A stretch of DNA of 63,409 bases, filler included, from Basidioascus undulatus (lineage: Eukaryota): the NCBI GenBank assembly GCA_000826855.1. It is 8 parts of 8 records of this genome, joined end to end, with 100 filler letters (N's around TTAATTAATTAA, not from the genome) between each part and the next. Parts side by side here need not be neighbours in the genome. Positions count along the whole stretch, not along the records: positions 31,438 to 36,689 come from JTLS01001974.1; 7 more parts are not named here. One strand, given 5' to 3'. The notes beneath the pieces are model-generated. The model was not told the origin of the DNA. It did not search any database and saw nothing but the letters and a program-made list of their open reading frames with translations. Positions within the stretch are counted from its first letter, which is position 1; every line of letters starts with the position of its first letter. Made by a program: the position numbers and the translations under genes. Positions 26,017-61,728 of this stretch are shown here, in pieces.

Positions 26017-26116
26017 NNNNNNNNNNNNNNNNNNNNNNNNNNNNNNNNNNNNNNNNNNNNTTAATTAATTAANNNNNNNNNNNNNNNNNNNNNNNNNNNN
26101 NNNNNNNNNNNNNNNN
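26017..26116. other. Artificial contig-joining spacer (N44-TTAATTAATTAA-N44); identical spacers at 31338-31437, 36690-36789, 42037-42136, 47383-47482, 52728-52827 and 58073-58172
   Basis: Identical 100-bp structure each time, with an all-frame stop linker; genes are cut off at these boundaries. Confidence 0.99.
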
Positions 26117-28859: not shown

Positions 28860-30319
28860 CTACGCCGGCCCAGGGACCGCCTCAGTATCTCCCGCCTGGC
28901 CGCCTGCGACCGGGCGGAGCTCGATGTCTGGCCCCTCCTCCTCGTCGCGGGTCGGGCGCCAGTCGGAGAGATCGGGGGGAGGCAGGAACCCCGCAGCCTG
29001 CGGCGCGGGCGGGGGTTCGAACGGGAGGGGAGGGAGCGGAAGGAAGGTGCAGTCGTATGTGGCGCAGACGGCGCGACGGGATGGGCTTCTCGTTCAGGAT
29101 GTCAGCTTGTGTCTAAGCAAAACGTTGGCAAGGTGGCTCGGAGTCCCTCGCCTTGTCCAGCGCGGAGAGAGCATCCCCAGCCCTGGAATCCGTGCTCGAC
29201 AGTACCACCCGGCGGAGATTCGCCATGTCGATCAGGTCTCGAGCTTTCCCGAGAACGGCGGCGTAGAGGCCGTAGAGGCGCACGGAGTCCTCGTTGACTC
29301 CGGGGGTAACGCGGTTCGGTTCTGGACCATAGCTGGTCCCTGTAATGCGAGCATGGGTGCTGGAGCCGCGACGGTATTTGAAGCAGACGTGCAGGAGTCG
29401 AGCGTCTATAACGTGAAGGTCAAGCTTTGCTGTGTCTCTCGTCCAAGCTTCGTTGTCGGTGATGGTCGCGAGCAACAAAGATGATACCTGGAAAGTAAAT
29501 TAGGGCAGGCGTTGACAATCAATACACGGATTGGGTGCTCACAAACGGGTCGGAGAACACACAGAGATCTGCATCTGCCCCGCTCCCCGAGTTGTGCAAG
29601 ACGAGGAGGGAGGGTGTCGTCCATACCCGCGCTGAACGAGAGCAATAAGGCCCCCGTAGCAGAGTTTCATTCTGGAACTGTGGTCGGAATGGCAGAAATC
29701 ATTCCGAGCCACACCGAGCGCAGCATAGACTCGATGTGGTCGTTGCTGGTTCGCGCAGCCTGACAAGTTTCCGCGAAAGCAACAACCCCGAACAGGCGTT
29801 GGGCTGCAATTAGGCCCATGTCGAAGATTTGAAGCTCAAAAGAATGCTCGCAGTCGTGAGGAGATACCCCGTAAGTGATTGCAAGCATATGAGGATATCG
29901 AGAAATGCGTCAGGTCGATGTGACCTGTCCGGCGGTGCCAGTAAAGCCGCGCAGTGCAAGAGGCACCAAGGAAGTGGAGACTGGAATCGACCGCACTCCA
30001 ACACAAAGCGGACCCTAAGCGATTCGACAATGGCGCGTGCGTCCGTTGCGTCCATGAATCTGAAACTGTTCTCCACCAGAAGCAATCTGATGATTGCTCC
30101 ACAGAGGTTTTAGCAAGCAACGGAATCACCTTCCAAGAAAACCCAACACGCCACCAGGCGGAATTGCGTCAGGCGTTGTGAATGGATACCAGGCTCGAGA
30201 CTTTCAGGGAAGCCCCTCTGCATTAAAGAGCCGAAAAGGCCTGAGGCCGAGTCCAATCTGAGGCCGAGTCCAAGTGGACGAGGCGATCTTCGAAATGTGC
30301 CTTCTTGCAGTCCGTTCAT
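28860..30319 (-). other. Possible lineage-specific or decayed protein-coding gene (unassigned)
   Basis: Chain of minus-strand open segments (29810-30085, 29113-29478) and a GC-rich Pro/acidic tail PPSLPFEPPPAPQAAGFLPPPDLSDWRPTRDEEEGPD...*; no family recognised. Confidence 0.25.
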
Positions 30320-31437
30320 ATAGCGCTCACCGCTTGATTAGAGCTCTTCAAAATGGACATCGACCCCGACTTGGTCGCTTCTATGCTTCGCTCGGTCAGT
30401 CAGGGAATGACTACGGAGACTGGCGGTGATGCCACGAGTCTGGGGCTCTGTTTCGAGTTCGTAGCGTGCTTCCTGCCCGTCTACGGAAGGGACGTCCTCC
30501 TCGCCTTCCACATTTTGCCGCGCGGAGCCCGAATTTTCGAGAAGTTCGGGGGTTCCAACGACTCCCGTTTGGCTACTCTGGCGCGATATCGGTCTGCTCT
30601 GATGCGCCGTCGATTCCTCCAATTTCGTCCCCAACGGGTGTGCCTATCTCGCCGATATACTTAACAGCTGTTCGGTCTGATCTAAACCCTTGCCGACAAC
30701 GAAGAGTGGGCGACAGAGAATCTTGAGCTTCACCACCTAGACGCTCTCTCTTTGGGTGTGTGTTTCGAATATCGCTCCGACGCCACTGGCTCCACTGGCC
30801 ATTCCCTCATCCCTTCGTACGGCTACCTTCTGCACTTGCAATCCAACGAGGATGTGGACGAAGAGGTTGTGCTACTGTATAGCCGCTTCGCCGCTGGTCT
30901 TGGCAACCCTGGGATCTCGACGACCTCGCAAATCTGGACACGCTGCTGCAGAGCAGCCCCGTCTATACGTTTGTGTTGGCACGCAGGGCGTTGGCGAAAC
31001 CGCGCGCGTCCATTCTTGGTAAGCCTTTCCAATACCTTTCGTCTTAAGCAAGGTTCTGACGGGTCTCTGTGGCAAGGACGTTACCCAGACTACGTCCCGC
31101 GTCCTCCCTCAGATTCCATCCTCAGCGGTTGTCTCGATCACGTCTTGACGTCTTTCCCTCCCGCTGCAGCCCACACGCATGTACGCAGGGCGTAGGATGG
31201 CGTGGTGTTTACCCGGCGTGGTTTGGACTGGCTCTGCGCAGCTGCAATGAGGAGGACACATGTCGCCTCGCCTCTGGGGGCTCGCCTTACTAGCCTCACC
31301 TTATCTCACTACTATTGGACCTATGTTGACTAATGAANNNNNNNNNNNNNNNNNNNNNNNNNNNNNNNNNNNNNNNNNNNNTTAATTAATTAANNNNNNN
31401 NNNNNNNNNNNNNNNNNNNNNNNNNNNNNNNNNNNNN

Positions 31438-31518
31438 TTTGGTAGTATAGTGGCTAGTATATCCGCTTGTCATTCAACCTGACCGCGGGCGACCCGGGTT
31501 CAATTCCCGGCCAGAGAG
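31438..31518 (+). tRNA. tRNA-Asp(GTC) with an 11-nt intron; first ~2 nt lost at the contig start
   Basis: D-arm GGTAGTATAGTGGCTAGTAT; anticodon stem TCCGC/GCGGG with GTC at 31469-31471; intron TTCAACCTGAC at 31473-31483 (canonical 37/38 position); T-arm CCGGGTTCAATTCCCGG; acceptor 3' strand CCAGAGAG. Confidence 0.93.
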
Positions 31519-31520
31519 TC

Positions 31521-31526
31521 TTTTTT
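31521..31526 (+). terminator. RNA polymerase III oligo-T terminator of tRNA-Asp
   Basis: TTTTTT begins 3 nt after the tRNA 3' end. Confidence 0.75.
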
Positions 31527-31773
31527 GATTTTCTGGATTTTCTCATTGCTGCTTGGCCAAATTACAGCCTTTTTGAATGCCCAACTTTGAGCCTGCCACA
31601 CCCAACAAGTTTGGCATATTCAGTCGAGCCTAGTGCCGCGCTGTCGCTTGCTGTCGCCAGCATAATAGGCAAACGGTGCCAGAGCGTCATTTCGTCTGAA
31701 AAACTCGAGTCAGGAGCAGATGTTCGGCAGCTCTGCTGTGTCGGGGAGACGGACAGCACCGCGATGAGTGGGT

Positions 31774-33326
31774 CGCTTCGAGAAGCGGGGCATCTGGAAG
31801 CTCGAAAGCTCGAAGGAAACGCGTTCGGGGACGCTGGCGGAGACACGCATCAAATTACGGGGAGAGTTGAGGTGGCGTCGAGACGCCGAAGAGAGACGCA
31901 TGAGTATGCGGGACCGAGAAGCTTCGGAAAGCAGGAAAGTGCGGAATGCCCCCAAGGATGGATAAGACGCAAACAAAATGCGGGTAGAAGAAGGCTTCGA
32001 AAGCCGGACAGAAACGCTGCGAGAACAAGTAGCTTCAAAAGGGCTGTGGGTAATTCGGATCTCCGAAGAGCTGAAGTGAACGCATTCGAAATGCGGGACT
32101 GGGAGCTTCGAGAAGCAGAAAACGACACTCCCAAGAGCAGGGAGAGACTCTTCGAAAAGCTGTGAGAAGGGAGGGGGGGGGGCCGAAGGGTGAAAAGGAC
32201 GCAACGCATCGAGACGGGGGAGGGGAATTTGGGAGGAACGCGCACATCGAAATGTGGGGTACAAGCGCTTCGTGAAGCGGAAGGAGACGCTTCGAAAAGC
32301 GGGAAGTGGGGGTGCAAAGGGCTCAGCGCGCTGTGCGACAGGACACGGAAGGAAGGGCACACCGGGACAGATCACGCCGCTGCTAGGAAAAGAATGATAC
32401 CAGTATGCTTGAGAAGAGCGAAGTCTTACCTGGCAGAAGTGCACTGTGAGCCTCAAAGGCATGTTAGCCGTGTCGCAAGGCGCGTGGGTCGCAAAGCAGA
32501 GCGTGACGGAGACGCACCTCACTGAGGCCACAACTCCCTGTACCAGAACATGCGTCAGAAAACACAAGATCCTTTCTCGAAAGAGCAATGCTAACCGAGA
32601 CGGGTGAGCTGTAAAGAAATGCGTGAGTAAGGAAAAGGGGTGACGCGTCGAGACGCGGATCGAGGACACCTCGAAAGGTGGGCGAGGGACCGCTCATCTG
32701 AGCGGGAAGAAAGAGCTTCGACAAGCATAAGGAAAAGAAAAGGCCTGAGATATCGCTTTAAGAAGCGGGAACAAGAGCTTCGAAAAGCTGGCACGTCGCT
32801 TACGAACAGCGGGAGACGCACCTGGAAAGGTTGGAACAGGCAGCCTCGAATGGCCGGAGGAAAGCACCTCAAAAGGTGGGAGAGAGAGCATCGAAATGCC
32901 AGAAGGAAGCGCTTTGAGAAGCGGATGAGGATGGACGCTTCGAAAAGCGGGAGTGATTGGTGCGCTCTCGAAAAGCGGTGGGTGCGCTTTTGAAAGCGGG
33001 AGAGACGTGTGCGCTTTTGAAAAGCGGGACAGATGCGCTTCAAGAAGCCGGTAGGATGAGTGCGCTTCGAGAAGCGGGCACGAGGAATGCGCTTCAAGAA
33101 GCGGGTGAGAGAGTGTCGCTTTGGAAAGCAGATGAGAATTGCCTTCAAGAAGCGGGCGGGAAGGGAAGCTTCGAAAAGCAGAAGGAGACGCTTGGCCGGC
33201 AACAAGCGGGCGAAAGACGTTTCAAGAAGCGGGCGAGAGGCATTTCGAGAAACGAGGGATATGCACCTCGAGAAGCGGGGAATGGACGCTTCAAAAAGTG
33301 GGATAAGAAACGCTTCGAAAAGTGGG
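31774..33326 (+). repeat. Array of ~30 co-oriented palindromic mini-hairpins, consensus CGCTT-CRAR-AAGCG-GG, with variable purine-rich spacers
   Basis: Copies at e.g. 31774, 32266, 32288, 32754, 32910, 32936, 32985, 33012, 33036, 33063, 33090, 33117, 33218, 33287 and 33311. The densest part, 32910-33326, has 21-29 nt spacing. Stem variants are compensatory (see findings). Confidence 0.9.
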
Positions 33327-33599
33327 AGTGACCTATGGACGGGCGGTAAGGACGCTCTCCCGTGGGTTGCGGGGCACCCCACAAGGCCAGCATGGAAAGG
33401 TGGGACTGCATGGGGCTAGCGGACGAGGAAGCGACCTGTGGGTGTGAGAAGGGGAAGCAGTCAGCACGCTGCTTTGACAGAGAACTGGGATGCAAGATAG
33501 AGAGGAGAGACATACCCTGCCGTCTCCAGCTCCCAGCCGCCCTCCTATCTGTCCTCCAACCGCTCCCCACCAGCTTTGCAGGCGCAGGAGAGAGGTCAG

Positions 33600-33990
33600 C
33601 AACAGCAAAGATGCGGGGCATGAATGCGGAGATCCGACGTGCCCTCGTACCCCATCCACTGCCCCCGGCCACACCCACCTCCCAGCCAGCCCACCACGCC
33701 CGGCGGAACGCGCCCGGCACGCGCCTTATCATCATGCCGGATGCGGTCTGCAAGGCCACAACCAGGATTTGGCAAGGCTTGCAGTCTTGGTTAGGATTCA
33801 CCACTAGACACTTTCCGTTTCCGGCCTTGCAGTTTGCCTTTGGTTTCCTTTGTTCTATCTTTCCATGACGTCTCCTGGATACTCGTTTCCTATTCCGCAC
33901 AATACGTTCTACATCACGGACACATGACCATGCCTCACACTTTAGTATGAGACAGCCACCGGATTGCCCAACCTTTGCTCCGTATTCCCT
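33600..33990 (+). mobile_element. Possible decayed non-LTR retrotransposon ORF2 C-terminal fragment
   Basis: VCKATTRIWQGLQSWLG...LQFAFGF loosely resembles the C..A..IW..L...L...FG tail after the zinc knuckle of LINE ORF2 proteins. No RT motifs seen. Confidence 0.25.
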
Positions 33991-35691
33991 GTAGATAAAT
34001 AGCCTGCTCTCCTGAGTCAATCATTGAAGTACTTCTCTTGCAGCCCGCCTGTGGCTTGCCTCCTTACACGGTCCGTGTCCGGATGGTGCTCTGGAACCGT
34101 AGTCAGGACAATAGTCAGCGCGCGGGTAAGATTGCTGAGATGGTGAGCAAGATAGGAAACAAGAGGCACTCTGGTAGGCGTGGCTGTTCAGAAATACGTC
34201 CGCGCCAGCGCGGAACCTCTGCCACCCTCGCCACCCCTGGTTACCCTCCCTGGCCGTGGCAGTGCTTGTTGTGGCGCTGTGCATGAGCTCGAAGCTGTAA
34301 GAGAGGGAGTGGATGAGCGTTCGCACTCTGAAGACTATAACCCCTTAGAAAACTTGAAAGGAAGACGACTTGGCAGGAAGACGACTTGGCAAGCCATAGA
34401 GCCGCGATGAGGTCGTTGACCGCACGGGAGACGGTTGTGCAGACGTAAACCCGCTGCACAGTCGGGTACCGACCCAGCTCGCGCCTACATATGATCCCAC
34501 TCCTGTCAGCAAACGCCTCCAGCTCGAGCTGCTGAGGTGGCAAGGAGCCCACTTGATATTGTCATCGCTGTAGGCCGCAACCCTGGCAGGAACAACGAGG
34601 GTGGCAACGTTGAAGGATTTGCGAAACGGGAACGTGGCGATCCGATACTGCAGGCGGACGGTGCGCTTAATAAGAGAAGGAGCGGGCATCGCCGCTTGTG
34701 CTGAAGAGGAGAGGATAAATTTTGGGAGAGGGAGAAGAGCATGCAACAAAGCAAGCATTCTGTCTATGGCTGTTTTGTTTTCAGGGCCAAGGTCCGGCCG
34801 CACGCCGACCAGGTGTGCCAACTCACCCTCACTGTCTTGTCTTGTCTTCAATCGACGCCACAACACTCCCAGAGGTTATATCAGCATAGTTTGCAAACTG
34901 AAAGAAACGTGTATTTCAGAAATGTTGAATAGAACATTGTCAAGAGTGCAATTTTCTTTTGCCGAAGCGGACTGCCGGGACTCGAGCACTTCGCACACGG
35001 GCTCTGAGCTGACATACGAGACTACTGTTTCTGTAGGCTGCTTTGGCTGGCATACATTCAAATGGCTTGCATGCCTCCTAATAATCAACTTTCTTTCAGA
35101 GATATTACTGTCTTCACGGCGCGAGCTCCCTTCTTGCCTTGTGCGCTGAAGTTTTTGATGAATGGTCCAACCAAACTGTCCGGACTCTAGGGGGCATTCG
35201 AAGTACGGATACTTTAGATGGTTTGGCAACATACAGTTATAGGAAACCACAATGCACATTGGGGAGGCAGAACGTGCTGCCACCAAACCAGGCTCGACTG
35301 TTACAGGCTGCCAATGCCCTGCACCATCTGGAACCAGTACAGGTGGCATGAAAACCACCTCCCCCCAGCGATCATTTGTTTTCCTTTCCTTCTGTGGTAG
35401 TGCCACTCTGTATACATCAGCCTACCCTTAAGGCTTAAAATGCTGGACCAGTGACCCTTTTTACCAACGAGCAAGGGAATTGACTTCCACCGGCATCGCC
35501 GGCGCTATCTTCGAGTGAGTCGTCGGCTCCCACATCCCGAGCCCGCCTGCCACCTCCCCATCCCTAGCTGCGCAGTCGCAGACTTTCACCTATTGAATGA
35601 ACGGTCCCAGTATCGCTCCGCGGTCGACAATTACAAAGACTTGTGCTGGAGCTCGTGGGTCGTCGGCTGCGCTGCGCACTGCGCGCCCGGG

Positions 35692-47317: not shown

Positions 47318-47382
47318 GCCTCGCTAGCTCAATCGGTAGAGCGTGAGACTCTTAATCTCAAGGCTGCGGGTTCGACCCCCGC
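47318..47382 (+). tRNA. tRNA-Lys(CTT), 3' end truncated by the contig end
   Basis: GCCTCGCTAGCTCAATCGGTAGAGCG; anticodon stem TGAGA/TCTCA with CTT at 47351-47353; T-arm GCGGGTTCGACCCCCGC; no intron. Confidence 0.93.
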
Positions 47383-52727: not shown

Positions 52728-53851
52728 NNNNNNNNNNNNNNNNNNNNNNNNNNNNNNNNNNNNNNNNNNNNTTAATTAATTAANNNNNNNNNNNNNNNNN
52801 NNNNNNNNNNNNNNNNNNNNNNNNNNNGGGGGGGGGAGGGGGGGTAGGAGGGACGATGGGTATGATCGGCGGGGGGGCGGCATGAGGGGCTGGGATGACT
52901 GATGGCCGCAGCGTGGCTCGGTGTTGTATTCATACCCCACGGAACGTGCAAAATGCGCAGACTTTGTTCAGGCCATATCTGAGGCTCATCTGTGTGGCGG
53001 ACATGCCGCATACATGAAGCCTGCGTGCATGCATTTGCCCGAGTCCGGGCCGTCGTCCTCGCCTTCTTCCTCGCCCCCTTCCCTTTGGATGTCACTCAGA
53101 TCTTCGCCTTCTCCTCGCCTGACTCGAGCTTGATGTGCTCGCACGATCCGCACCCCGACGAAGCCGTGCACTGGCAGCTTGCTCCGCCTGCCTCTCCAAG
53201 TCAGCGCTCATCCGCCTTGAGGTTTCAAGATGCAGGCTGTTGCGCACACTTGCAGCAGTTGACGAGGGGCAAGGTGGGCGAGCTGGAGTGAGCCGTTGAG
53301 TTAATGGTCTGTACTCCAGCAGAGGGTAGAGGTGAACGGGCCATGGCCGTAAAATTGTTATCTCTGAGCGAGGCAAGCAAGATGTTAATGAAAATGCCCA
53401 ATGGGAAAGTGCAGGGTCGCAACGCTCAAGGACGCTCAAGAGGCTGTTGTAGTTGTGGGGGAAAGTTGTGTGACGCTTCAGTCCAGTTATGTACCGGTTC
53501 AAGGCGAATGGTACTCTCGAACTGACAAGAAGGTGGGCTGGCGTGGCAAGGATGTCGGGTAAACTGATTGGACGCACTGATACGGTAGCCGCGCGGGTAG
53601 CGAAGTTCAGCCAGAACGGAGGGTGATTTGTCATAAACGACTTCATTAAGGACTTTGCTCGATAATGTGAGTTTCGAGGAATAGTGGATTTGCGGACGAC
53701 ATGCACATAGCCATTACCTGCTGCCAGCTTCTTCTCGTCAAGTCGCTGCTCCCGCTCACTTGGGTCTGCAACATACAAACTCTCTCACAGTGCGGCCTAG
53801 CGCTACAGCACGGTCCTTCAGAAAATTCATATCCCAATCTTTGCAACAACC

Positions 53852-59369: not shown

Positions 59370-61728
59370 ATGCGTCTCTCCCCCTGGCTCCCACTCCTAC
59401 CAGTCTCGCTGGCGCTCCAGCTCCCCTTTCAGCTCCCCTTCCTCCGCCCGTCCTCCTCCCCAGACAGCCCGACGGTCTCCTCGGCACCGCAGCCCAAGCG
59501 CATAGCCATTGTCGGTGCCGGCCCCGCGGGGTCGAGCGCGGCCTTCTTCTTCTCCCGCGCGGCGAGACAAGCGGGCGAGGATGTGGAGATTGTCGTTTTT
59601 GAGAAGGAGGGCAGGGTCGGGGGACGTGAGTCTCTCAACTCGGGCCTGTGGACAGCCGAGACGAGAGGCTGAGAGAGACGCGTGGCGGAAATAGGCACGA
59701 CTACCGTTCAACCGTATGATGACCCGGAACTCGAGCCTGTCGAATTTGGGGCGAGTATCTTCGTCGATGCCAACAAGAACATGATGAAGGCCGCCAAGGT
59801 CCGTTTCCCCTGCGTGCGCGGCACCTGCGTCTGATGCGGAGGTATTGGGAGGGAACCGCAGGCGTTTAACCTTACGCTCAGGGAGGACGAGCCTGAGGCG
59901 CTTGAGGGGGAGGACAGCGTGGGGATCTGGGATGGAAAGGAGTTCGTGTTCGAGGTGCGTTGCTGTGAGAGCAGACGGAGCGAGCGAAGGGTGTGAGGGA
60001 CTCATCGGCTGTTACTTCACACTGGTGTACAGAGCTCGAACTGGAGCTGGTGGAACACCGCAAAGATGGTGTACGCTCTTCGTCTCTCTTTGTGGAGGCA
60101 CCCCATCTGACGAACCCCGAACCCGCTGCAGCTGGCGCTACGGAGTCCGCGCGCCCCTCCGAGCCCGTTCTCTGTCCGTCCGATCTCAATCATCTTTCCA
60201 CTTCTTCCACCATCTTACCCCCTCCTTCCCCACGCAGCACCAAATCCGCGGTCTCCTCCTTCCTCTCCCTCTACTCGCCGGCGTTCCTCGCCGCGAACGC
60301 GCCTGCAGGGCACCCGGCCGCGCTCCTGGCGCAGCTGAACTTTACGGACCTGGTAGCGCAGGATGCGCTGGGGTACTTGGTGGGGAATGGGGTGGACAGG
60401 CGGTTTGCCGAGGAGGTCGTGGAGGCTGCTACGAGAGTCAATGTGCGTTGTGACCTTCCCGAGGAGAATGGCGGGTGTAGGTGAGTGGATGCTGTGCTGA
60501 GGTGAGGGTCGATCTGGTCGGTACGGGTAGTATGGCACGGATCTGGGTGTCATCCATGCGGTGGGCGCGCTTGTGAGCCTGGCCGGCAGCGGGGGGACGC
60601 AGATCAAGGGCGGGAACTGGCAGGTGCGTCGCTTCCTTCTCCACATCGCCCTTATATGCTTACGCATTTGCATTTGCACACAGGTGTTCGAGAAGATGGT
60701 CGAACACAGCAATGCCACAGTGCACTACAACACGACCGTGCACCATCCCTCATTATTCCCTGTGCTCTCCTTGTCTTACAAACGCAAACCCTACAGGTCC
60801 TCGCCGTCTCCGCCCTTCCCGTCTCACCCCCGAAATATACGCTCACAACCACAACAACCTCCTCTGCCCTCTCCGCCGCGTCCTCCACATTCGATGCTGT
60901 GTTCCTCGCGCTCCCCCCGCACTCGCTGCCCTCGCTGCCCGCCTCTGCCCTCGCCCCGCCCAAAACGCCCTACATCCCCCTCCACGTAACGCTCTTCACA
61001 ACCTCTTCTCCTCACTACGCCTACCCGCCGCCCTCGTCCTCATCCTCGCACCCGCCCTCGATGGTCCTGACCTCTCACGAGGCTTTGCGCGCGGGGAAGC
61101 TGGAGGCGAGACTTCCCTTCAACTCGGTCAATTATCTGAGGAAGATCGAAAGAGAGCGACGGGATGAGTGGGTCGTCAAGGTCTTTTCGGAGGGAGAGAT
61201 GTCGCTGCAGGATCTGGAGGGCTTTGTTGGGGTGGGGAAGGTCGGGTGGGTTAAGAGGAGGCTGTTTTATGCTTACCCCAGGTGCGCCGCACCTTCCCTC
61301 TCTGAGTTCCTTCTGCGCGTCCCGGATCTCGGAACTGAACTTTATGTTGATGCATGCAGGTTGGTTACCAACCCTGAGTTCGCGCCCTTTGAGCTCGACG
61401 AGAACCTGTACTACCCCAGCGCGTTCGGTGCGTCCCTTTTCCTGCCCTTCTCTCTCCTAGCCCCCATCTGCCTCCGCTTCGGCACACCTCACCCCAATTC
61501 AACTCAACCCGCTTACCCGGCTTATCTCCTTCCCCATTCCCCCCTACAGAGCCCTTCATCTCCACCATGGACACCCAGACTCTCGCAGCGCGGAACGTCG
61601 TCGGGCTGCTAGCGGAGAAGTGGGGCTGGGGAGGGTGGGGCGATGGGTGTTCTCCGGAAGCGGAGGAAACGGAGACGGAGGGGAAAGAAGAGGGGAGCGG
61701 GGAAGAGGTGTGGACGTGGCTTTGCTGA
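59370..61728 (+). CDS. Prenylcysteine oxidase/lyase (PCYOX1-like FAD flavoprotein), multi-exon
   Basis: Signal peptide; Rossmann motif RIAIVGAGPAGSSAA...FEKEGRVGGR; PVEFGASIFVDANKNMMKAA, VEAATRVN/YGTD...IHAVGALVSLA...IKGGNWQ/VFEKM, YIPLHVTLFTT, FNSVNY, KVFS, AYP, EPFISTMDTQTLAARNVV; TGA at 61726-61728. Confidence 0.92.

Follow-up and report, generated by a model that had tools for sequence, protein, structure and literature searches.

A dispersed array of covarying mini-hairpins in the fungus Basidioascus undulatus: possibly a minisatellite whose stems are kept complementary at the DNA level

When the two arms of a stem covary, a functional RNA helix is usually regarded as all but proven. The genome of the fungus Basidioascus undulatus (GenBank assembly GCA_000826855.1) contains an array in which about 40 replicates of one tiny hairpin, present at at least three loci, have kept their arms complementary and otherwise look neutral. 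Does such an array reflect a function of the hairpin, as RNA or as DNA, or does it reflect processes acting on the DNA itself? A preliminary description of the locus had considered a multivalent structured RNA, a single-stranded or cruciform DNA element and a transposon subterminal array, and had named template-switch correction of quasi-palindromes as a neutral alternative; this last reading is the one ranked first here.

The window, that is, the whole stretch of DNA analysed (63,409 nucleotides), is a chain of separate contigs with seven linkers (44 N, TTAATTAATTAA, 44 N) at 26017, 31338, 36690, 42037, 47383, 52728 and 58073, and features are therefore not to be read across the joins. Positions 1-26016 form a single piece, and the contigs after 26116 are ~5.2 kb each. 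The array sits on the contig at 31438-36689 (5252 bp; JTLS01001974.1), and no resemblance to this contig was found elsewhere within the window.

A weight-matrix scan, which is unable to select for pairing because its columns are scored independently, identified 41 co-oriented hairpin units on the + strand at 31774-33330, where about 30 had been counted before. Over the whole contig the scan gave 44 + strand units (41 of them in 31774-33326) and three minus-strand units, against 1-7 units in each of 20 block shuffles, which bears out the single orientation first described. Exact hairpins with a 5-bp stem and a 4-nt loop number 18 in 31700-33400 and 78 in the other ~61.7 kb of the window, the latter figure predicting ~2 per such stretch. 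A covariance-model scan, which the preliminary description had suggested, was run on the 63-kb window and returned 38 matches at E<1, 36 in the array (+ strand) and only two in the remaining 61.8 kb on both strands; since the model was built from array units, only the scarcity of matches elsewhere is informative. The array is laid out as follows:

31774..32306, + strand: array block 1, with 15 older, more degenerate units and many non-consensus yet complementary stems (GGCGT/ACGCC, CGCAT/ATGCG, CACAT/ATGTG), from the weight matrix, the covariance model and the sequence
32307..32639, no strand: non-repeat interruption of ~330 bp, with no units except one weak one at 32469, from the weight matrix and the covariance model
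32640..33330, + strand: array block 2, with 25 units plus an enlarged-loop unit at 33189, from the weight matrix, the covariance model and Tandem Repeats Finder (TRF)
33331..33410, + strand: fading array end, with one degenerate unit at 33389 (weight-matrix score 10.9)

The unit consensus is CGCTT-CGAA-AAGCG-GG, followed by a purine-rich spacer. Its best-kept letters are T5 (41 of 41 units), A10 (39), G12 (38), C3 (35), G15 (35) and C6 (34), and 20 of the 41 units end in GGG. The spacers are non-repeating, purine-rich and variable in length; their columns carry ~0.03-0.2 bits of information and are roughly even A/G mixes, and purines make up 65-70% of the + strand across 1.6 kb. On the minus strand the unit loops read UUCG, CUCG or CUUG. 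All ten stems listed in the preliminary description are present where it had placed them, as is the enlarged-loop unit at 33189, which keeps its stem around an 8-nt loop (CGCTTG, loop, CAAGCG, then GG). Spacings are mostly 21-28 nt. The period of 21-29 nt reported for 32910-33326 held as 21-28 nt, apart from one spacing of 51 nt across the enlarged-loop unit. The last 430 bp of block 2 are the youngest and most uniform portion (period 21-28 nt), and TRF reported periods of 22, 23, 27 and 54 solely within 32959-33251, at this young 3' end. With G.T counted as a pair, all five pairs are intact in only 19 of the 41 units; the other 22 have at least one broken pair, which indicates that the array is decaying. 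Within the array region there is also a homopolymer G-run at 32170-32181, whose length is uncertain, one DNA run having an extra G.

How far the arms covary was examined in a gapless alignment of the 41 units. Watson-Crick pairs occupy 160 of the 205 stem cells, against 134 +/- 3.8 in a column shuffle of the 3' arm letters, and none of the 5000 rounds reached the observed value. Cells changed on both sides and yet paired number 17, against 4.95 +/- 2.0 (again 0/5000); in this test of aligned and shuffled units, likewise suggested beforehand, compensatory pairs are thus commoner than expected. A pair-counting tool gave 82.4% paired cells against 72.4 +/- 1.7 shuffled, and 18 both-side-changed paired cells against 5.9 +/- 2.1 (0/500 shuffles), the latter falling to 5-8 when the partner was slid by 1-3 columns. 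By pair, 4-11 shows all four Watson-Crick combinations, with 10 of its 12 both-side-changed cells paired (A-T four, C-G four, G-C two), and 2-13 has four such paired cells, all A-T. In the outer pair, 1-14, 16 of the 41 units are unpaired, and cells changed on both sides are paired there no more often than chance predicts. The covariation is thus real but partial: the earlier claim that the stems covary stands for pairs 2-13 and 4-11, which exceed the shuffles, and fails for the outer pair.

Units of a tandem array are related to one another, which inflates shuffle tests, and measures less sensitive to inheritance are indeed weaker: further pair types number 11 against 7.6 +/- 1.5 (reached in 10/500 shuffles), and pairs with both-side change number four against 2.8 (67/500). 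Duplication was for this reason included in a neutral array simulation, which combined point mutation with neighbour duplication at five duplication-to-mutation ratios from 0 to 4, with 400 runs each, up to the observed arm divergence of 0.217. The 160 paired cells were never reached (maximum 152; 0/400 in each regime); the six distinct perfect non-consensus stems observed compare with a simulated maximum of three and means of 0.3-0.6 (0/400 per regime); and 17 both-side cells were attained in one of 2000 runs. The complementarity of the arms exceeds neutral drift, unit duplication included. This agrees with the earlier view that ordinary minisatellite drift is not expected to give repeated double-sided changes, the slid-partner, shuffle and simulation controls all being exceeded.

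The same cells were also informative about wobble pairing. G.T cells number nine, below the shuffle mean of 14.6, and A.C cells number ten; because the two are equally frequent, neither strand shows wobble tolerance. Of the marks generally looked for in a structured RNA, compensatory changes are present in pairs 2-13 and 4-11 only, and tolerance of G.U on one strand is not seen.

Folding predictions differ between the single unit and the longer stretch. As + strand RNA, single-unit hairpins average -4.0 kcal/mol (shuffled units: -1.8 +/- 0.25), and 37 of the 41 reach -2 or lower; the means are -3.3 kcal/mol for minus-strand RNA and -3.0 for DNA. The predicted fold of a 431-nt stretch, with z-scores of -3.6 (+ strand) and -6.8 (minus strand), pairs arms of different units and does not form separate mini-hairpins. 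Rfam detected on the array contig only a transfer RNA (tRNA) and a chance-level match (E=0.82).

Evidence on expression comes from run X3, labelled 'DNA?', which is probably RNA because intron joints at a minus-strand gene (described below; CT..AC on the + strand, hence GT..AG on the minus strand) occur in this run only and are absent from the DNA runs X1 and X2. X3 contains low-depth contigs (3.6-5.8) with the variant letters of another array copy, and some transcription of the array family is thus possible. Among the sequencing runs listed, none recorded as RNA contains the locus; neither this nor the lack of X3 cover over 32318-33549 counts for or against expression.

The array is non-coding. 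None of the 12 open reading frames (ORFs) of at least 130 aa on the contig matches Pfam, and all of the contig ORFs lack the high third-position guanine-plus-cytosine content (GC) of this genome's exons. No predicted protein is related to the 274-aa ORF that crosses the array on the minus strand; long ORFs are to be expected on this strand because it is pyrimidine-rich. Moreover, of the 40 spacings just 11 are divisible by three, so that no reading frame is kept, in line with the earlier argument from the variable period.

Besides the present locus, the array occurs elsewhere in the genome. In X1 and X2, which are probably runs of the source genome, the array is matched colinearly by two further contigs, of ~17 kb and ~11.5 kb, with 12-14% differences (~86-88% identity), over 31744-32021, 32204-32321, 32622-32966 and 33082-33124. 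Both cover 32204-32284 and share six differences from the present locus, which indicates at least three array loci. In the second copy, 258 other letters replace the non-repeat middle 32322-32621 (joint 32321->32622), and one copy carries on as array to the left of 31744, where the present locus is unique. The loose ends of the other copies hold further units with other complementary stems, such as CGCCT/AGGCG and CACAT/ATGTG. Alignments of the other copies are confined to 31744-33165, and no second DNA contig in X1 or X2 covers the flank 33374-35485; to judge from these alignments, what the copies share is the array itself, with no fixed terminus and with differing flanks.

Recent change was followed through the 31 differences listed in the compared spans, a count that leaves 53 further table rows outside. 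Among these 31, differences fall on 14 of 200 spacer sites, 7 of 100 arm sites, 8 of 40 loop sites and 2 of 19 GG sites. Unit 31846 has decayed at the present locus and is perfect in another copy; conversely, unit 31874 is perfect here, and two listed arm changes would break the stem of the other copy. In this partial view of the differences listed, no protection of the stems is apparent after the divergence of the copies, and change appears to be fastest in the loops.

Taken with some hesitation, and with less than even confidence, the most probable account is that the array is a low-copy, dispersed, non-coding, hairpin-bearing minisatellite, with processes at the DNA level keeping its arms complementary. 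The mechanism that we infer would begin with growth of the array via slippage or unequal exchange. When the array is single-stranded during replication or repair, each unit may snap into a mini-hairpin, and mismatched arms would be rewritten, one arm being copied off the other, either by short-range template switching or by inverted-orientation conversion, which the near-palindromic core would permit. Alternatively or additionally, well-paired units may duplicate more often than mispaired ones. Spacers, having no partner, would drift by transitions, staying purine-rich, and by small indels; transition-saturated drift of this kind is expected to give the near-even A/G mixes and low information content that are seen. 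On this reading, the covariation would be a footprint of DNA metabolism and not of a function required by the cell.

Several observations favour this account. Arm complementarity surpasses every shuffle, slid-partner and simulation control, and the locus is non-coding and matches no Rfam family. Pairing is Watson-Crick only, whereas a constraint on RNA should tolerate G.U on the transcribed strand; and the units are decaying, with no sign of current constraint between copies among the differences listed. According to the available parts of two reports (PMC8794818; PMC8604942), template switching creates and repairs hairpin stems with multi-base compensatory changes.

Several points weigh on the other side. 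A stem of 5 bp closed by a 4-nt loop offers template switching only a poor primer, and by our own estimate at least 7-8 independent compensated changes beside ~45 unpaired cells need a high ratio of switches to point mutations. Template switching would also be expected to have lengthened some stems; the stems here stay at a constant 5 bp and meet purine-purine clashes on either side. Conservation is also much stronger in the core than in the spacers (T5 in 41/41 units versus ~0.1 bit per spacer column), a contrast that could equally reflect selection on the hairpin. In addition, the argument from recent change draws on part of the copy differences, and the probable RNA run X3 holds contigs of another array copy at a depth of 3.6-5.8.

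The array has every minisatellite feature that was tested, including head-to-tail units of 10-100 bp in a single orientation (41 + strand units versus three minus-strand ones). Like minisatellites with hairpins or palindromes, it is non-coding and intergenic, consists of head-to-tail, co-oriented units of 21-29 bp that include variants, and runs from an old degenerate end to a young uniform one. It differs from ordinary minisatellites in that complementarity is maintained through both-side changes beyond neutral expectation, in its conserved core combined with spacers that have no common sequence and vary in length, and in its colinear copies at at least three loci. Template switching or quasi-palindrome correction, in the available part of Monttinen and Loytynoja 2022 (PMC8794818), predicts the same function-free reverse-complement arms, multi-base compensation and Watson-Crick-only pairing; it is, however, a mechanism and not an element family, described there for single hairpins and RNA genes and not for a 40-unit array of 5-bp stems. 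The likeness is one of pattern.

If maintenance at the DNA level is correct, the locus would provide a clean natural case of stem covariation without RNA function, a warning to searches for RNAs in repeats that rely on covariation, and a system in which to measure template switching on very short stems. If an RNA is involved instead, the fungus would possess a multivalent hairpin RNA of an unusual kind.

Such a multivalent structured RNA, transcribed alone or as read-through from the minus-strand gene or from the tRNA side, is the best-surviving alternative, and we regard it as unlikely. Its ~40 mini-hairpins would serve as repeated protein-binding sites, forming a scaffold or a sponge. The significant covariation in the shuffle, slid-partner and simulation tests is what it would predict, and the pattern of the units, in which loop and closing pair are conserved and positions 2-4 and 11-13 vary yet stay complementary, is the one known from sequence-specific hairpin binders. 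The unit hairpins are also stable as RNA on either strand (-4.0 and -3.3 versus -1.8 kcal/mol shuffled), the minus-strand loops are UUCG, CUUG or CUCG, and low-depth contigs of another array copy occur in the probable RNA run. However, neither strand tolerates G.U, Rfam offers no match to the array, and the 431-nt fold joins units to one another; none of these results bears out the structured RNA put forward in the preliminary description. Furthermore, over half of the units carry a broken pair, the loops are the fastest-changing class (8/40 sites among the differences listed), and no related array was found among the metagenome loci listed or among predicted proteins. The A-repeat of Xist is a close structural parallel, comprising tandem GC-rich mini-hairpins with low-complexity spacers and a proposed multivalent protein binding; the present array has ~5 times more units and no wobble tolerance, and is known here from its DNA sequence.

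A related proposal is a family of selectively maintained scaffolds at gene 3' ends, each with ~40 hairpins in RNA or single-stranded DNA, that would recruit a hairpin-binding protein through the conserved loop and closing pair. We consider it distinctly unlikely, though the conserved core beside free spacers and the fixed 5-bp stem would suit selection on an RNA, or on the hairpin in general. The plant class of Short Interrupted Repeats Cassettes (SIRC; 10.64898/2026.03.27.714674) resembles the array in combining short direct repeats and spacers of varied sequence in a eukaryotic genome, and the available part of that report describes consensus secondary structures together with an evolutionary model for doublets (paired sites). 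SIRC as verbally described suit the array, a likeness by description only; the class is defined on plants. The examples in the same source are much shorter (one has 49 nt and a 10-nt repeat), and SIRC are tied there to mobile elements; no such link was found for the array.

The setting of the array suggests another possibility, for which the neighbouring genes are needed:

31436..31518, + strand: tRNA gene with its 5' end cut by the contig start (Rfam tRNA at 38 bits versus a gathering score of 29; 37.7 bits and flagged 5'-truncated in a second run)
34021..34758, minus strand: small spliced gene of four exons, with introns at 34091-34169, 34295-34385 and 34485-34552 and its 3' end towards the array

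The tRNA gene lies 255 bp to the left with its 3' end towards the array, and since the 3' ends of both genes face it, the array stands between two converging genes. Functional non-B DNA, or a barrier, might accordingly be proposed, in which hairpins and purine bias slow polymerases or forks or mark a boundary on the tRNA side. Besides this position, the purine content of 65-70% over 1.6 kb, the Watson-Crick-only pairing, as in DNA, and the mean of -3.0 kcal/mol for DNA unit hairpins are all in keeping with it. On the other hand, stems of only 5 bp would in general be too short to extrude stably as cruciforms from duplex DNA. The other copies have different flanks, so that the convergent setting may be a coincidence; runs of at least three G are at the level of composition (46 versus 45.8 +/- 5.0 shuffled); and the units are decaying. 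On balance this possibility appears improbable. One report, in its available part (PMC5889037), proposes a role for short dyad symmetries in satellite DNA, with centromeric satellites adopting non-B DNA; these share with the array dyads of <10 bp in tandem repeats, and the array differs in being 1.5 kb long and lying beside genes.

Alternatively, the units might be sites bound, as double-stranded DNA, by a dimeric protein (a transcription factor, TFIIIC or a transposase, for example), or the relic of a transposon made up of such sites. Each unit is a short inverted repeat with the conserved centre T-C-R-A-R-A, TTCnnGAA occurs in 10 of the 41 units, and the family is dispersed. A sequence-specific dimer, however, does not select symmetric covariation. 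The motifs, in their consensus forms (B-box GGTTCGANNCC; heat-shock element as alternating nGAAn), gave no support either, with no match to the B-box at <=1 mismatch and no exact match to the three-unit heat-shock element. Nor are there terminal inverted repeats above chance, a transposase domain or an inverted partner array, and the homology among copies has no fixed terminus. This explanation is considered quite improbable.

The weakest explanation, an ordinary minisatellite with a merely inherited palindrome whose covariation is an artefact of unit relatedness, is already disfavoured and very improbable: duplication-related units do inflate shuffle tests, and the measures less sensitive to kinship are only moderately significant (10/500 and 67/500 shuffles), but simulations with duplication at ratios of 0 to 4 never reach the paired cells or the distinct perfect non-consensus stems, and pair 4-11 shows all four Watson-Crick combinations with 10 of 12 both-side-changed cells paired.

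Several specific identities were tried and rejected. A transposon end (CACTA, hAT, Mutator or fold-back), as in the subterminal array suggested earlier, is unsupported: inverted pairs on the contig number just two (14 and 18 nt) and do not exceed chance (for 14 nt, ~2 are expected by our own estimate), no transposase-like ORF or domain was found, three minus-strand units make no inverted partner array, and the copies lack a common terminus, their homology stopping at the array. A cluster of TFIIIC B-boxes was excluded by the absence of GGTTCGANNCC on either strand at <=1 mismatch, and a heat-shock element array by the absence of exact matches to TTCNNGAANNTTC; the two-unit form is present in 10 units, and the variant stems lack it. 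The stem-loop-containing G-quadruplex, taken from the available part of its description (PMC4477648), has no support here, because the runs of at least three G match composition. There are no TTAGGG or CCCTAA runs of a telomere-associated repeat. A CRISPR-like array is at odds with the eukaryotic host, the ~5-13 nt purine spacers and the lack of associated genes, with no test aimed at CRISPR made. An internal block duplication of the array was also rejected, as the local alignment is gap-ridden and has no positional homology.

A scan of metagenome contigs with a two-unit pattern returned at least 119 loci, with no true relative among those listed. On re-scanning and reading, they proved to be unrelated: arrays of 10-11-bp units (L095, L036), uniform 22-27-bp arrays (L022/L082, L083, L067, L037, L066), coding repeats (L046, L062, L033) and L077, which is GC-rich and has pyrimidines, not purines, dominating its spacers on the same strand; the periods of 20-30 bp follow from the gap set in the pattern. 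L105 (Ga0082212_10055056, 2251-2885) and L077 (Ga0196963_10071753) are unrelated 22-23-bp arrays on a similar GCTTCGAAAAGC-type core. Some of their units change both arms, for example AGCTT/AAGCT versus AACCT/AGGCT in L105. Since the pattern forces their period, neither locus is evidence of kinship. A keyword search of the literature found no description of a fungal array of this kind, which is not proof of absence.

With regard to the genes beside the array, the tRNA gene is followed by a T6 run at 31521-31526. It was not seen by ARAGORN, as expected for a truncated gene. In the DNA runs, read depth over the tRNA bin is 591 and 2306 against ~19 and 36 elsewhere on the contig (30-60x baseline), indicating many genomic copies. 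Two contigs of the window break inside tRNA genes, at 31436-31518 (5' end) and at 47325-47382 (3' end); together with the depth over the first, this suggests that the assembly breaks at multi-copy tRNA genes. The spliced minus-strand ORF, from 34758 to ~34021, has a coding-like GC by codon position of 0.61/0.47/0.67, and the N-terminus of its product, in the translation of exon 1, resembles a signal peptide; none of its four exons has a Pfam family. A high-depth contig (107) of run X3 across 33713-34637 differs in several places and has other joints, suggesting that a relative or allele missing from the DNA runs is expressed.

ORFs on the other contigs, split by introns, have matches to Tim44, Sec5, dihydroxyacetone kinase, an F-box/WD40 protein and DUF2408, a fungal family; this gene set and the style of its introns suggest a fungal nuclear genome. 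A further ORF, at 60506-61609, had a single match, at 36% identity. TRF also reported perfect two-copy tandem duplications at 30241-30273 (17 bp) and 34359-34391 (16 bp), and one contig starts with a long, very G-rich tract at 52828-52900.

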